Part shown: piece after piece, positions 2,687-20,000 of the stretch
How positions within the stretch are numbered: the stretch's first letter is position 1
Layout of the letters: each line of letters begins with the position of its first letter
Source of the DNA: Chiloscyllium plagiosum
Lineage: Eukaryota
NCBI RefSeq assembly: GCF_004010195.1
Contig: NC_057718.1
Coordinates: 69,541,224-69,561,223, forward strand
Length of the DNA stretch: 20,000 nt
Reading direction: 5' to 3'
Made by a program: the position numbers and the translations under genes
The notes under the pieces: model-generated
Database searches by the model: none
What the model was told of the DNA's origin: nothing
What the model saw: the letters and a program-made list of their open reading frames with translations, nothing else

Positions 2687-4191
2687 AAAGAAAAACAAAT
2701 AATCTTGAAATTAGTGGCCAGGAACCGTGGTTCTGTTTGGATGATTGGAGCATAAATGTTGATCAGAATATTCTTTGTTCTTCAGCAAATTGTCCATTAG
2801 ATGTTTTATATTGGATATGGTCGAGGTTCGTGCCTTACCTAAATGATCTAGAAAATAAATTTAAGAATTACCAGGGTCATTGTTATTATCTAAGCAGGAT
2901 GAAAAAGAAGGGGATCCTGTATGCCTGGTCCACAGGATGCTAAATATCGTAAAAATGCAGATGGATAAATGCAGCCTTGAACCAGGCAATAGCATAATCT
3001 CTATCTGTAACATTGAATCTATACTTTCTCTGATGTGCAAGATGTAAAACAAAGACATAAATGTAACTTTTACCATTAACACCACTCCAGTCTGTTAAGA
3101 CCTAAATCATTGTTCACAAACATACAAATGAACAGCTTTTGGGATTACTTTTGGATTTGTGCTTCTTTCCCACAAAACAGCTGTTTGCCATATCATTCAT
3201 AAATATTAAGCAGATGTTCACATTTACAATGTATTAAGAAAATAAACCTTCTCTGCATCAAGAGATTTGGAAAATACACACTCATGAATGAACAAGAGGA
3301 AAGAATTTGTCCCTTGCACACAGAAATGCATGAATTCTGAATCTCCATTTAATTTTCAGCTAAATACAATTTTAAATTCTTGATTTTTTTATATATATAA
3401 ATATTTATGCAAAAATCCTGGAAATAACCTGCTCTTTCTAGGAGAGTTACTGCTTGAAATATTTTCAAAGTCACCCGTCAGTTTACAAATAGTGTATTCT
3501 GCAAATTAGTATGAACTAATGAGGAATTCAATGGGAAATTTCCTTGCTTATATAAACCTTACAAACTAAACCATAAAGCATTTGACTTTGCTTATATCAG
3601 AAGAGGAGGCTGTTCTGTCAGCAAGTGCTTTGTATCTGCTCAGTACCAAAGGGGCTGCTGAGATTGGGAATTCTCAAACTAGCAAAACTACATATGTGAA
3701 TTTTCTCGACTATTCACTGGCAACAGTTTATTGAAATCATTAAAAAAATCAAACTCCACCAACCAATATCATAACCACATTTCAAACAAAATAGACATGC
3801 TTGCCAGTGGTATATCAATGAGGTTCAGTTTGCATAAGGAATAAATGGATTTGCTCTAACACCATAATTTACATCCGTTCTCATATTTTCTCGATTCAGG
3901 GAGTTTTAAACAAAGCTTTTGTGAAAGAGGCTGAAATGAGTGGTATAAACGATGGAAGTAGACAGTATAAGTTTTCTCTGCTTGTTAAGTAACCCAAGTG
4001 AAATGAATCTGAGCCTCAAATTTGGTATTAACTGACATTTAATTGTCAAGTGTGTAAAACGGGTGTCACATTGTAAATAGGATGTCCTTCTGAACTTGGA
4101 ACAGAACAACAAATAGGGCAGATTCAACAAACACCCGATTGTGCTGCACCTGATCTGTTCAATGAATGAAACAGAAAGCCTTCCTGTAGTT

Positions 4192-7787: not shown

Positions 7788-7917
7788 TTCCTTATTCCAA
7801 ATCAGCCTCCAGGCTCGTTGTTTGCTGTGTACATAGGCTTTGGAGGATCATAAGATACAGCTTCCCAGCCTCTGACTGCTTCAAGACACAGTGATGATAT
7901 GACTAGTCTAATTCAGT
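7788..7917. repeat. 130-bp direct repeat, copy 1
   Basis: Matches 10046-10175 with 3 mismatches and no indels. Confidence 0.95.
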
Positions 7918-7922
7918 TTCTA

Positions 7923-8108
7923 AGAGAAAGGGAGGACAGCAGATGGCAGAGATAAGAATTGAAAAGTCACTGTGGCACTGGAAAACACAGCGGGTCAGGC
8001 AGGAATGCTGCTGAAGGGCTTATGCCCGAAACATCGATTCTCCTGCTCCTTGGATGCTGCCTGACCTGCTGTGCTTTTCCTGCACCACACTTTTTGACGC
8101 TAATTTCT
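7923..8108. mobile_element. Palindromic Penelope-like-derived element, copy A (centre deleted), with TSD
   Basis: Inverted arms GGAAAACACAGCGGGTCAGGCAG / CTGCCTGACCTGCTGTGCTTTTCC; homologous to 17917-18408 and 19616-19809; 8-bp TSD AGTTTCTA at 7915-7922 and 8109-8116. Confidence 0.8.
8003..8040 (+). ncRNA. Degenerate minimal hammerhead ribozyme motif
   Basis: GAATG-CTGCTGA-A-GGGC-TTAT-GCCC-GAAAC-ATC-GATTC: core with an A6-to-C change and intact stem II. Confidence 0.5.
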
Positions 8109-8270
8109 AGTTTCTAGTCAATGGTAGCTCCCAGGATGCTGATAGTGGAGAATTCAGTGACAATGTTGAATGTCAAGGCTACATGATAGGATTCTCTCTT
8201 GTTGAAGATGGCCATTGCCAGGCACTTCTGTGTTGTGACTATAACATTCCATCTATCAAGCTATATCTTT

Positions 8271-8567
8271 AGATTAGATTAGATTACTTACAATGTGGAA
8301 ACAGTCCCTTCAGCCCAACAAGTTCACACCGACCCTCCAAAGATAAACCCACCCGGACCCATTCCCTACATTGGCAATTTAGCATGGCCAATTCACCTGA
8401 CCTGCACATTTTTGGATTGTGGGAGGAAACGGGGCACCCGGAGGAAACCGGCGTAGACACGGGGAGAATGTGCAAACTCCACACAGACAGTTGCCTGAGG
8501 CGGGAATTGAACCCAGGTCTCTGGCGCTGTGAGGCAGTAGTGCTAACCACTGTGCCACCGTGCTGCC
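8271..8567 (-). mobile_element. Full-length HE1-like tRNA-derived V-SINE
   Basis: Minus strand: A box TGGCACAGTGG, B box GGTTCAATTCC, V-domain GTCTGTGTGGAGTTTGCACATTCTCCCCGTGTC...GTTTCCTCCCACAATCCAAA, LINE-like 3' end and (TAATC)n tail. Confidence 0.92.
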
Positions 8568-9329: not shown

Positions 9330-10520
9330 CTCCTAGCCTTTTCTGCTTTTACATTATTATCCTAGTCTGCATTCTGATGGTTAAACTCCCTCATTATGAT
9401 GTATCTCATACTTTGATTTCTCAATTGTCCTGTAAATTTGTTCCTCCATAGCTTTGCCACTTGTTGCTGACCTACGGACTATAGTGAGCAATGTAACTTC
9501 ACTTTATAGGTCCCTGATATCCAGCCAAATAGATTGCCTTAGATCTCTCTGGGGTATTCTCTATTTCCACCAGTTGAACGTTCATATTAATTAATAGGGC
9601 AACCATTCCTCTTCCTTTACTTCCTTTCTACCTTTTCAATAGTATGCTGTATCCAGTCCTGCCTTTCTTTGAGACAGATCTCTGTTATCATTATATTTCC
9701 TCATTACAATCTGCATCTATAACTCACCAACCCTATTTACCATATAGGCATTCACATACATGCATGGGAACTGGTAAATCTAATTTAGACTTTATTATTT
9801 ATCCTCTACCATATTATTAACTACTCGAGTGCTTTTGTTCTATTCCAGTGTACTCTTGGTGTACCTATTTCGTATTGACATTTTGGTTGATGCACTCCTA
9901 CCAAGTGAGTTTAAAAATTCCATAGCACTAGCAAATTACACAAGGAAATTGGTCCTGACCTTATTTATATCTATCATTCCTGGCTTGATCAGATTCCTTC
10001 TCCCAGTACTGATTTGAATTCCCAAGAATCTAAAGTTGTCCCCCTTTCCTTATTCCAAATCAGCCTCCAGGCTCGTTGTTTGCTGTGTACATAGGCTTTA
10101 GAGGATCAAAAGATACAGCTTCCCAGCCTCTGACTGCTTCAAGACACAGTGATGATATGACTAGTCTAATCCAGTCAAGCATTTATATGCTCCATCTTCC
10201 TTTTTGCACACAATAAGTGTATTACCGGGAGTAATGTGGAGATTAATATATTAGAGTTCCTAATAGCTGATTTGATTTCCTATTTCATTCCCTAAATTCT
10301 GACAATAGGTCTGAAATCCTCTTTTTACCTCTGTTGCTGGTTCTGGTGTGGGCAGTGACTACTCATAGTCCACTCTACTCTCTCATGTTACTCTGTAGCT
10401 GTGAGCTGACATTTTTGATCCTGTCACCAGGGAGGCAGCATACATCCTGGAGTCATGCTGCGGCTGCAGAAACACCAGTGTGCTTCTCTAACTATTGAAT
10501 TTGCTATCATTATTGTGTTT
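9330..10520 (-). mobile_element. Old degenerate CR1 LINE: ORF1 esterase region and start of ORF2 endonuclease
   Basis: Minus strand IMIANSIVR (decayed IGDSIVR) at about 10490-10515 and CLPGDRIKNV at about 10410-10440; ITEICLKERQDW (APE N-terminus) at about 9653-9690. Boundaries approximate. Confidence 0.65.
10046..10175. repeat. 130-bp direct repeat, copy 2 (inserted in an old CR1 ORF1)
   Basis: Matches 7788-7917 with 3 mismatches. Confidence 0.95.
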
Positions 10521-10809: not shown

Positions 10810-13800
10810 GTCATGGAGTCATAGAGGTGTACAGCACGGAAACAGACCCTTTGGTTCAACCCGTCCATGCCAACCTGATATCCCAGCCCAATCTAGTCCC
10901 ACCTGCCAGCACCCGGCCCATATCCCTCCAAACCCTTCCCATTCATATACCTATCCAAATGCCTTTTAAATGTTGCAATTATATGAGCCTCCACCACTTC
11001 CTCTGGCAGCTCATTCCATACACATACCACTCTCTGCGTGAAAAAGTTTCCCTTTAGGCCTTTTTTATATCTTTCCCCCGTCACCCGAAACCCATGCCCT
11101 CTAGTTCTGGATTCCCACACCCCAGGGAAAAGACTTTGTCCATTTATCATACACATGCCGCTCATGATTTTATAAATCTCTACAAGGTCACCCCTCAGCC
11201 TCCCTTGCTCTAGGGAAAACAGCCCCAGCCTGTTCAGCCTCTCCCTATAGCTCAAATCCTCCAACCCTGGCAACATCCTTGTAAATCTTTTCCGAACCCT
11301 TTCACGTTTCACAACATCTTTCCGATAGGAAGGAGACCAGACTCGCATGCAATATTCCAAAAGCGGCCTAACCAATGTCCTGTACAACCGCAACATGACC
11401 TCCCAACTCCTGTACTCAATACTCTGACCAATAAAGGAAAGCATACCAAACGCCTTCTTATCCTACCAAATCCTATCCACCTGTGACGCCACTTTCAAGG
11501 AGCTATGAACCTGCACTCCAATGTATCTTTGTTCAGCAGCACTCCCTAGAGTCTTACCATCAAGTGTATAAGTCCTGCTAAGATTTGCTTTCCCAAAATT
11601 CAGCACCTCGCATTTATCTAAATTAAACTCAATCTGCCACTTCTCAGCCCATTAGCCCATCTGATCAAGATCCCATTGTAATCTGAGGTAACCTTCTTCA
11701 CTGTCCACTACACTTCTAATTTTGGTGTCATCTACAAACTTACTAACTATATCTCCTATATTTATATCCAAATCCTTTATATAAATGATGAAACATAGTG
11801 GACCTAGCACCCATTCTTGTCGCATACCACTGGTCACAAGTCTCCAGTCTGAAAAACAACCCTCCACCACTGCATCTGCAAACTTACTAACTATACCTCT
11901 TATGCTAACATCCAAATCATTTATATAAATGAACAAAAGTAAGCGGACCCAGCACCTATCCTTGTGGCACTCCACTGGTCACAGGCCTCCAGTCTGAAAA
12001 ACAGCCCTCCACCACTATTCTCTGTCTTCTACCTTTTAGCCAGTTCTATATCCAAATGGCTAGTTCTCTCTTCATTCTGTGAGATCTAACCTTGTCAACC
12101 AGTCTCCCATGGGGAACCTTGTCAAACGCCTTACTGAAGTTCATATAGATCACATATACTGCTCTCCCCTCATCAATCCTCTTTGTTACTTCTTCAAAAA
12201 ACTCAATCAAGTTTGTGAGGCATGATTTCCCACGCACAAAGCCATGTTGACTATCGCTAATCAGTCCTTGCCTTTCCAAATACATGTATATCCTGTCCCT
12301 CAGGATTCCCTTCAAACACTTGCCCACCACTGATGTCAAGCTCGCTGATCTATAGTTCTCTGGCTTGTCCTTACCACCTTTCTTAAACAGTGGCACCATG
12401 TTAGACAAACTCCATCTTCAGGCACCTCACCTGTGACTATTGATGACACAAATATCTCAGCAAGGGACCCAGCAATCACTTCCCTAGCTTCCCACAGACT
12501 TCTAGGGTACACCTGATCAGGTCCTGAGGATTTATCCACTTTTATGCATTTGAAAACATCCAGCACTTCCTCCTCTGTAACATGGACATTTTTCAAGATG
12601 TCGCAATCTATTTTCCTACATCCTATATCTTACATATCCTTTTCCACAGTAAATACTGATGCAAAATACTCGTTTAGTATCTCCCCCATTTTCTGTGGCT
12701 CCACACACAGGCCACCTTGCTGATCTTTGAAAGGCCTTATTCTCTCCCTCGTTACCCTTTTGTCCTTAATGTGTTTGTAAAAACCCTTTGGATTCTCCTT
12801 AACTCTATTTGCCAAAGTTATCTCATGTCCCCTTTTTGCCCTCCTGATTTCTCTCTTAAGTATAACTCCTACTGCCTTTATACTCTTCCAGGGATTCACT
12901 CGATCTATCCTGTCTCCATCTGACATATGCTTTCGCCTTTTCATTAACCAAATCCTTAATTTCTTTAGTCATCCAGCATTCCCTATACGTATCAGGCTTC
13001 CCTTTCACACTAATAGGAATATACTTTCTCTGAACTCTTGTTATCTCATTTCTGAAGGCTTTCCATTTTCCAGCCGTCCCTTTACCTGCGAACATTTGCC
13101 CCCAATCGGCTTATGAAAGTTCTTGCCTAATACCATCAAAATTGGCCTTTCTCCAATTTAGAACTTCAACTTTAGACCTGGTCTATCTTTTTCCATCACT
13201 ATTTTAAAACGAATAGAATTATGGTCGCTGGCCCCAAAGTGCTCTCTGATTGACACCTCAGTCACCTGCCCTGCCTTATTTCCCAAGAGTAGGTCAAGTT
13301 TTGCACCTTCTCTACTAGGGACACCCACAAACTGAATCAAAAAAGTTTCTTGTACACACATTCCTCTCCATCTAAACTCTTAACACTATGGCAGTCCCAG
13401 TTTATGTTTGGAAAGTTAAAATCCCCTACCATAACCATCCAATTATTTTTACAGACAATGGAGACCTCCTTACTAATTTGTTTCTCAATTTCACTCTGAC
13501 TATTAGGGGTTATAGCACAATCCAAATAAGGTGATCGTCCCTTTCTTATTTCTCAGTTCCACCCAAATAACTTCCCTGGATGTATTTCTGGAAATATCCT
13601 CCCTCAATAACACTATCCCTTATCAAAAAAACCTCTCCCCCTCCTCTCTTGCCTCCCTTTCTATCCTTCCTGTAGCATTTGTATCCTGGAACATGAAGCT
13701 GCCAGTCCTGTCCATCCCTGAGCCACATTTCTGTAATTGCTTTGATTTCCCAGTCCCATGTTCCTAAACATACCCGGTTTTCCAAAACAGCACAACTATT

Positions 13801-17916: not shown

Positions 17917-18408
17917 GGTGAAAGTGAGTACTTGCAGACGCTGGAGATTAGAGTCAAGATTAGAGTCATGCTGAAAAAGCACAGCAGGTCAGGCAGCATC
18001 CAAAAACCAGAAAAATAGATGTTTCATTGAACATAGAACATAGAAAAATACTGCGCAGTACAGGCCCTTTGGCCCTCGATGTTGCGCTGATCCAAGCCCA
18101 CCTAACCTACACTAGCCCACTATCCTCCATATGCCTATCCAATGCCCATTTAAATGCCCATAAAGAGGGAGAGTCCACCACTGCTACTGGCAGGGCATTC
18201 CATGAACTCACGACTCGCTGAGTAAAGAATCTACCCCTAACATTTGTCCTATACCTACCACCCTTAATTTAAAGCTATGCCCCCTCGTAATAGCTGACTC
18301 CTTTTCGAGTAAAAGCCCTTCAGCAGCTCTTCCTGAGGAAGGACTTTTGCCTGAAATGTCAATTTTCCTGCTCCTTGGATGCTGCCTGACCTGCTGTGCT
18401 TTTCAGCA
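17917..18408. mobile_element. Palindromic Penelope-like-derived element, copy B, interrupted by a LINE tail
   Basis: Same head (GAAAGTGAG..CTGCAGA.GCTG) and inverted arms as 19616-19809; degenerate hammerhead cores on both strands at 18303-18362. Confidence 0.85.
18026..18302 (-). mobile_element. CR1-type LINE 3' end with (AACATAG)n tail
   Basis: Tail GAACATAGAACATAG; highly similar to 19810-20000; candidate TSD TTTC at 18022-18025 and 18303-18306. Confidence 0.85.
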
Positions 18409-18619: not shown

Positions 18620-19615
18620 CCCTAGAGGGATAGAGAATATGCAAGAGAAAACTTAAAAAGGGAGATTAGGAAAGCTAAAAGGAAGCATGAAAGAATAATG
18701 CCAGGAAAATAAAGAAAAATCCAAAGTGATTTTATTACTTTATTAAGGATAAAAGGATAACTAGGGAAAGAGTATGGCCCAACAAGGACCACAGTGGTAA
18801 TTAGTGTGTGGCGCGAAAGAAGGGTAAGTAGGGTTCTAAGCAATTAATTTATGTTGCTGTTCACCAGTGAGAGGGATAGTGTGGGAGCTTGAGTGTGATC
18901 TAGCATGCTTAGAAGCCTAATGAAATGTATTCCAGGCTATTAAGGTAAAGGTGGAAGTAGTAGTGATGTAAGCAATAATTTTTAATTCCCTAACCACAGG
19001 AAAGATATCAAAGGACTGAAGCCAATGTGGTTCCTTAACCAAGAAGAGAGCAAGGGATAAACCAGGAAACTACTGGCCAGTCAGTCTAAGCTTGATGGTG
19101 AGAAGTCATTGGAAGCAATTCTGAGTGATAGAATTAACTCAAACTTGGAGAGGCAGAAATTAATCAAGAATAAAGAACTTAAAATAAGTATAAAGATCTT
19201 AAACATGGAATTAGATAGGCTAAAATGGGTCATGAAAAGTCATTCAAAAACAGGATTAAGGAGAATCCCAAGGCTCCAAAAGCTAGTGCTTCCAAATACG
19301 TCTGTTGGACTGTAACTTGGTGTTGTGTGATTTTTAACTTTGTCCACCCCAGTCCAACACCGGCTCCTCCAAGTCATGCATAGCAAGGGAATAGCAGGAT
19401 ACGGATCCTGTAAGTGAAAACAGTGTAGTACTGAAGGACAAAGTATGTCTGCACAGGCTTAGAGGATTGAAGAGCCTATTCCTATGCTGTATTGTTTTTT
19501 GTTCTTTAATAGTCAGCTTAATGGTTTTGTTAAGGGGACGTCATGTCTGACCAACTTGATTGAATTTTTCTAAGAGTTAACCAGGTATGTCGATGAGGGC
19601 AATGCTTTGGATGTA
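18620..19615 (+). mobile_element. Old degenerate CR1 ORF2 with nested insertions at about 19172-19508
   Basis: LKREIRKAKRKHE (about 18653), DKPGNYWPVSL (about 19056), LEAILSDRINSNLERQKLIK, resuming at about 19510 with GFVKGTSCLTNLIEFF..DEGNALDV. Confidence 0.8.
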
Positions 19616-19710
19616 GGCGAAAGTGAGGACTGCAGATGCTGAAAACCAGAGTCTAGATTAGAGTGGTGCTAGAAAAGCACAGCAGGTCAGGCAGCTTCCG
19701 AGGAGCAGGA

Positions 19711-19749
19711 AAATTGACATTTCGGGCAAAAGCCCCTCATCAGGAATTC
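19711..19749 (-). ncRNA. Minimal type I hammerhead ribozyme motif (opposite arm)
   Basis: Minus strand GAATTC-CTGATGA-G-GGGC-TTTT-GCCC-GAAA-T-GTC-AATT. Confidence 0.65.
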
Positions 19750-19782
19750 CTGATGAAGGGCTTTTGCTTGAAACGTTGATTT
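19744..19782 (+). ncRNA. Minimal type I hammerhead ribozyme motif
   Basis: GAATTC-CTGATGA(19750-19756)-A-GGGC-TTTT-GCTT-GAAA(19770-19773)-C-GTT-GATT. Confidence 0.65.
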
Positions 19783-19809
19783 TCCTGGCCCTCGAATGCT
19801 GCCTGACCT

Positions 19810-20000
19810 AGAACATAGAACATAGAACATAGAAGAATACAGCGCAGTACAGGCCCTTCGGCCCTCGATGTTGCGCCAATCCAAGCACACCTAACCTACA
19901 CTAGCCCACTATCCTCCATATGCCTATCCAATGCCCGCTTAAATGCCCATAATGAGGGAGAGTCCACCACTGCCACTGGCAGAGCATTCCATGAACTCAC
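19810..20000 (-). mobile_element. CR1-type LINE 3' end with (AACATAG)n tail, running off the window
   Basis: (AGAACAT)3 tail followed by sequence highly similar to 18026-18220. Confidence 0.85.

Follow-up and report, generated by a model that had tools for sequence, protein, structure and literature searches.

Two copies of the same end module, each about 130 nt long, lie head to head near the end of the 20,000-nucleotide stretch of Chiloscyllium plagiosum DNA analysed here (hereafter the window) and have later decayed. The resulting palindrome, copy A, is best read as an integration product of the kind described for Penelope-like elements (PLEs), and we put at roughly 80% the probability that it is a retrotransposition product of an abundant, endonuclease-bearing PLE and is carried as a passenger hairpin. 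The parts of copy A are as follows.

19616..19747, minus strand: left (inverted) arm with its outer extension, the putative 3' end of a PLE-type terminal repeat, which aligns with copies B and C
19616..19662, minus strand: what we infer to be a PLE 'tail', an optional extension at one end only
19712..19747, minus strand: minimal type I hammerhead; core 19743-19737, stem II 19735-19724, GAAA 19723-19720, GUC cleavage triplet ending at 19716
19744..19749, no strand: head-to-head junction GAATTC, with a 2-nt overlap of the arms at 19746-19747
19746..19809, plus strand: right arm, shortened by a LINE insertion, from self-comparison of the window
19746..19781, plus strand: minimal type I hammerhead; core 19750-19756, stem II 19758-19769, GAAA 19770-19773, GUU ending at 19777

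As the original prediction had it, the inverted repeat is free of indels and centred on GAATTC: its arms (19684-19746 and 19747-19809) are 63 nt apiece and ungapped, with zero spacer and 10 mismatches (84%). The predicted size of 126 bp holds for the repeat as measured but not as a natural length, since the left arm extends as far as about 19614-19616 and a LINE truncates the right arm at 19809/19810; 126 bp is an accidental length. The outer boundary of copy A is marked by a jump in the depth of family matches of about 500-fold, from 19595-19605 to 19617-19627, with loose ends at 19614 and 19619, and a second depth step with loose ends at 19663/19667 in contigs and reads marks the inner edge of the probable tail. 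The right arms of copies B and C end short of the tail portion. These two outer ends, separated by about 45 nt, and the unequal arms of B and C correspond to the optional one-end tail of EN+ PLEs. At the centre, both arms of copy A terminate 4 nt upstream of C3, and loose ends fall at the junction itself, at 19746/19747 in contigs of two organisms (X1 and X9) and at 19747 in RNA reads (X21).

The window contains three such elements, A, B and C, and all three consist of an inverted, 5'-truncated copy placed head to head with another, the arrangement of EN+ PLE insertions, which supports the inverted pLTR arrangement that had been proposed for copy A. All their centres differ. The other two copies and the immediate surroundings of copy A are these.

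17917..18408, no strand: copy B, head-to-head element; a 277-bp LINE 3' end (18026-18302) interrupts its left arm; candidate decayed target-site duplication
7923..8099, no strand: copy C, head-to-head element of another subfamily, left hammerhead absent; candidate decayed target-site duplication 7908-7922 / 8100-8116
19509..19599, plus strand: left flank of copy A, a decayed LINE reverse transcriptase fragment and the insertion site; 71% match to 12167-12254 (RVT_1-positive frame)
19810..20000, minus strand: LINE 3' end with a 7-nt tandem tail (array 19809-19834), continuing past the window end; 94% identical to 18026-18211

Any target-site duplication of copy A would be hidden, its right end lying beyond the LINE. 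The window is rich in broken LINE reverse transcriptase frames. The LINE that cuts copy A, which we take from its protein motifs to be of CR1 type, belongs to the same subfamily as the one that splits the left arm of copy B, and also resembles a LINE 3' end at 10944-11045. Only two LINE 3' ends in the window carry a 7-nt tail (18026-18302 and 19810-20000, 94% identical), and both sit inside hammerhead palindromes, at different points. This is probably chance; targeting of hairpins by the LINE was considered and rejected, the sequence preceding the tail being heterogeneous and AT-rich genome-wide (agreement 0.34 in contigs). Other repeats of the window comprise two LINE subfamily fragments that are 86% identical (80-1244 and 10814-12137, the second with a 145-bp internal tandem duplication at 11729-12016), SINE-like repeat pieces (1327-1418, 2446-2512, 2579-2676 and 8281-8474, with a short tandem tail at 8269) and a 130-bp direct repeat (7788-7917 / 10046-10175) whose copies are 98% identical and 2258 bp apart; the first of these stops within the candidate left target-site duplication of copy C and appears much younger than copy C. 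Sequencing runs of at least four organisms contain parts of the window.

The family is very abundant: at 80% likeness, 66,917 and 68,239 contig pieces in two organisms (X1 and X9) and 3,445 RNA reads (X21) match 19540-19860; a further RNA run (X22) gave no matching read and is uninformative. The depth of such matches is not equivalent to copy number, and no single contig among those listed spans this region whole. The exact centre of copy A is a minority form, the depth at 19745 being 7% (X1), 8% (X9) and 13% (X21) of that at 19739, values that are a lower bound for palindromic copies because junctions with indels are clipped and undercounted. From the centre, the loose ends that are listed run on, in two organisms, into one common upstream sequence, with low agreement (0.33-0.42); this sequence is absent from the window, where 2 matches at 2 mismatches were found against 1.69 expected. 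Among the 40 variant rows listed, alongside 31 unlisted ones, the free position N7 (19739), loop II (19729) and G12 vary, the last a CpG with about 10-20% variation. RNA editing was rejected as a source of variation, A>G and T>C changes accounting for 22 of the 66 variant places seen in RNA against 12 of the 41 seen in DNA contigs, which is no enrichment; the RNA/DNA differences look like a subfamily mix.

These data bear on whether the short palindrome constitutes a non-autonomous family of its own, that is, a hairpin master copy of MITE-like shape that is transcribed and that PLE enzymes retrotranspose as one unit. Copies A, B and C are indeed all short palindromes, and some contigs and reads from two organisms cross the exact centre of copy A. 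In addition, the left arm of B and the right arm of C (18318-18331 and 8004-8017) share two changes, core A6 to C and a G at 2.1, so that a common dead-core variant is carried in one arm of each; such changes could reflect a shared source, that is, descent from a common palindromic element, or a recurrent junction event. Against this, the same two arms differ at subfamily positions elsewhere and fall in different subfamilies, the relatives form a continuum of gaps, and a stable hairpin would presumably be a poor template. The differing centres, the 7-13% depth at the centre and the spacer continuum argue against a separately propagating family, which we consider unlikely. The non-autonomous derivative of the original prediction is thus retained solely in the sense of a truncated insertion.

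Within copy A, the hammerhead motifs are as predicted: reading outward from the centre, each strand gives CUGAUGA, a purine, stem II, GAAA and Y-GUH, the order being CUGAUGA, A, GGGC-UUUU-GCUU, GAAA, C, GUU on the plus strand and CUGAUGA, G, GGGC-UUUU-GCCC, GAAA, U, GUC on the minus strand. The assignment to the minimal type I hammerheads known from PLEs is supported. The core boxes CUGANGA and GAAA with U16.1-H17 occur on both strands, and helix II has its 9.1 nucleotide and the G10.1-C11.1 pair, intact on the minus strand and G-U through decay on the plus strand (family majority C). The palindromic positions 15.2-16.2, which would form dimer helix III, read ACGU in the plus motif and in most arms and AUGU in the minus motif, and helix I of the family comprises three pairs and one mismatch beside the core. 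A minimal hammerhead descriptor, composed after the motif had been seen, finds three motifs in the window (two in copy A and one at 18333); of 500 dinucleotide shuffles, 489 gave none, 11 gave one and none gave more. The Rfam scan called for by the original prediction found, at E<=1, no match to a hammerhead family, only sub-threshold matches to the MIR6024 hairpin and one match to sR52. We rejected the MIR6024 identity since the scores lie far under the gathering score and the matches reflect the hairpin.

Both motifs are damaged, which supports the earlier suspicion that this copy is probably inactive. Each of the 10 arm mismatches represents one arm leaving the family majority (four times the left arm, six times the right), and the CpG decay that had been invoked holds for four of the 10 (19715, 19719, 19769 and 19777), judged against that majority. 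The predicted imperfection of stem I is likewise apparent, C2.1 standing opposite A1.1 on the minus strand, where the motif also has AUGU in its stem III core and a G at 9.1; it departs from the family majority at 19715, 19719 and 19736, and decay affects the first stem I pair and the dimer helix. The plus motif, which departs at 19768, 19769 and 19777, has G10.1 opposite U11.1, a second G-U pair and U17, so that decay affects the G10.1-C11.1 pair, the neighbouring pair and N17. None of the six arms of copies A, B and C is intact.

It had also been proposed that a transcript of the element could pass back and forth between a long dsRNA hairpin and a fold that cleaves; such a switch would regulate self-cleavage. 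The palindromic centre does extend stem I, to 8 pairs on the plus strand and 7 on the minus strand, RNA of the family runs in both directions among the 3,445 reads of X21, and one PLE hammerhead was shown to be assisted by protein (Frangieh et al., 2024, PMC11167929). Folding speaks against the switch. The hairpin has an energy of -107 (plus) and -104.5 (minus) kcal/mol, and the best fold that keeps the hammerhead, stem I extension included, sits 41 (plus) and 47 (minus) kcal/mol above it, a large gap even though the energies are nearest-neighbour estimates; in prefixes ending 8 nt past C3 the core is already paired to its antisense. According to these models the hairpin would block the ribozyme, not switch it on. 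Besides the damage to both cores and to every arm in the window, RNA ends form no pile-up at any position in the one polyA single-cell library used, a weak test of cleavage, and just 26 of the 3,445 reads reach a likeness of at least 99%. We regard such a switch as highly improbable, the energy penalty and the pairing of the core upon transcription giving the proposed alternation no support. Cleavage as a dimer, also part of the original proposal, has a basis in the literature, in which minimal hammerheads (min-HHRs) cleave weakly as dimers (PMC4209133; review PMC6765202), but each transcript here holds one sense hammerhead, so a dimer needs two molecules, both of them melted.

The link of the family to PLEs is an analogy drawn from other animals. 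In the window itself we found no PLE ORF, and a protein search with the read-through frame of the element gave six candidates, none at E<=0.01, which is weak evidence. A 28-nt arm motif had no match in viral and metagenome contigs and the core motif none in viral contigs, and nine prokaryote matches to a 20-nt motif were set aside as chance (none with a PLE hit, longest alignment 34 nt). A metagenome scan for the core returned at least 120 loci, none of which was dropped, the core being fixed by the search pattern and therefore conserved by construction. The 120 listed loci have no DNA similarity to the window element beyond this core, and together with the lack of a direct PLE ORF in the family this makes the assignment one of analogy. 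Most of these loci look like animal host DNA, from their GPCR and P450 frames; one (L050) may be bacterial. A PLE protein (RVT_1 + GIY-YIG) from locus L003 matches 40 of the 120 listed loci, upstream on the hammerhead strand in 39, and its C-terminus lies 73-165 nt before C3 in 35. The Penelope ORF that was to be looked for beside the same arm is absent from the window; a PLE ORF remnant lies upstream of the same core in 39 of the 120 listed loci of other animals.

The position of the core downstream of PLE ORFs in other animals also weighs against a MITE resembling a DNA transposon, or a repeat of some other class, in which terminal inverted repeats carry a hammerhead-like motif by chance. 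A short inverted repeat with many copies and no ORF would suit such an origin, but the arms are unequal, one end is extended, and the arms run on into longer shared upstream sequence, so that we give this alternative very little credence.

Stem I provides a measure of ribozyme conservation that is independent of the search, since its pairs 1-4 lay outside the search pattern. They form in 97, 94, 84 and 68% of 125 hits (those of the 127 listed whose flanks are complete); the shuffles give 84, 58, 40 and 39%, and 0 of 2000 reached each observed value; pairs 5 and 6 give no signal in these 125 hits. When one hit is taken per crude cluster (37 clusters, over-split and not independent), pairs 1-4 form in 92, 89, 76 and 62%. 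The stem I covariation called for by the original prediction is therefore clear among the hits listed from other animals, the within-family set offering three pairs and a mismatch. Three further observations concern the loci themselves. L003:1005-3663 is a near-complete PLE, with a frameshifted RT/GIY-YIG ORF (its RVT_1 and GIY-YIG matches both fall under the Pfam cut-offs), a cysteine linker like that of Neptune and, at its ends, inverted arms of 130 bp with a hammerhead in each, one of them 133 nt after the frame. L023 holds two more palindromes (3051-3237 and 1147-1267, about 187 and 121 nt) that lack the searched core. L029:3022 (minus), L043 and L114 carry other minimal hammerhead families with different stems, several PLE families lying side by side.

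Of the 120 listed loci, 21 have an inverted arm upstream in head-to-head orientation, separated by 3-2494 nt; L020 and L065 represent the same locus. In the eight independent listed cases with gaps of up to 31 nt, symmetry reaches to 3-13 nt upstream of C3 in seven, and four of the eight are flanked by direct repeats of 12-14 bp. Alignment-based 5' ends, which are rough, could be kept for 96 of the 127 listed hits and lie at most 25 nt upstream of C3 in 20, at 26-50 nt in 10, at 51-100 nt in 13, at 101-200 nt in 11 and further away in 42. Together with the junction of copy A at -4, the short-gap palindromes and the 20 of 96 ends within 25 nt, against 10 in the next 25 nt, suggest a tentative generalisation that we hold to be possible but short of an even chance, namely that, across distant animals, PLE reverse transcription ends preferentially at the 5' edge of stem I and the inverted copy is primed at this same site, either since the template RNA begins at that point or since the enzyme is halted by the uncleaved ribozyme fold. 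The same counts are compatible with ordinary length-biased truncation.

The proposed retrotransposition would proceed as follows. The PLE enzyme would nick the target, and uncleaved RNA would be copied from the 3' end of the repeat through the hammerhead until copying halts at the 5' edge of stem I. The inverted second copy would be made in the same event, by fold-back and self-priming or else by priming of both strands followed by joining at the 2-nt overlap. The hammerhead would have been active in the source element, with its tandem arrangement, either as a dimer or helped by protein; in the stub it would be a passenger, mutated and locked in a long hairpin, and read-through transcripts would form dsRNA with no cleavage.

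As a single locus, copy A matters little: it is dead, has been modified twice and belongs to a very abundant repeat whose kind is already described, both its class of ribozyme and its inverted architecture having been published. The family as a whole, by contrast, supplies a great many natural PLE integration junctions for study, and how inverted pLTRs form and what purpose PLE hammerheads serve are open questions according to the cited papers. If junctions do cluster at stem I across animals, a precise prediction follows for the in vitro PLE system that already exists; the motif would then be an integration landmark rather than a cutter, and short insertions would emerge as self-silencing hairpins.

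Among known systems, the closest ribozymes are the min-HHRs described in the pseudo-LTRs of metazoan PLEs, in which opposite-strand pairs lie about 100-700 bp apart (Cervera and De la Pena, 2014, PMC4209133). The family shares with them the CUGANGA and GAAA boxes, the extra nucleotide at 9.1, the G10.1-C11.1 pair of the family majority, palindromic 15.2-16.2 positions (ACGU), a short helix I, many solo truncated copies and opposite-strand pairs, but the cores of copy A are 6 nt apart and its helix II has 4 bp. The term shark was not found in the covered part of its supplement, and the supplement of PMC8557442 held none of the motifs or shark terms sought; within our limited literature collection we found no description of zero-spacer PLE stubs in sharks. 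Li et al. (2026, bioRxiv 10.64898/2026.07.22.740005) describe non-LTR retrozymes of animals, one sampled chondrichthyan included. Like these, the present family consists of non-coding, PLE-derived repeats with type I hammerheads, but retrozymes are arranged head to tail, so that dimer cleavage is possible, whereas copy A is head to head, which prevents it, and the window has no head-to-tail hammerhead array.

In PMC11167929, the hammerhead of the Poseidon element PAc of Anolis needs protein and is dispensable for insertion, which draws predominantly on uncleaved RNA. The likeness to PAc extends to the two internal reverse transcription starts that explain its tail, the pLTR hammerhead, the uncleaved template and the lack of RNA-seq ends at the cleavage site; the PAc ORF begins at stem II, in contrast to the matched listed loci, in which the hammerhead follows 73-165 nt after the ORF end, and L003 has a CxxxxCxxC linker motif as in Neptune/Nematis, unlike PAc. 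The insertions themselves most resemble those of EN+ PLEs, which often carry an inverted truncated copy, read as self-priming (Arkhipova et al., 2013, PMC3846280; Craig et al., 2021, PMC8557442), and whose tail is described in both papers and in PMC11167929. As in the units reported in the first two, a 5'-truncated copy and an inverted copy stand head to head at a junction palindrome, with an optional tail (30-40 bp in those units) at one end; the units also have target-site duplications, of which copies B and C show decayed candidates. Unlike in those units, both copies here are reduced to their last ~130 nt, with no ORF. Their junction lies at the 5' edge of hammerhead stem I.
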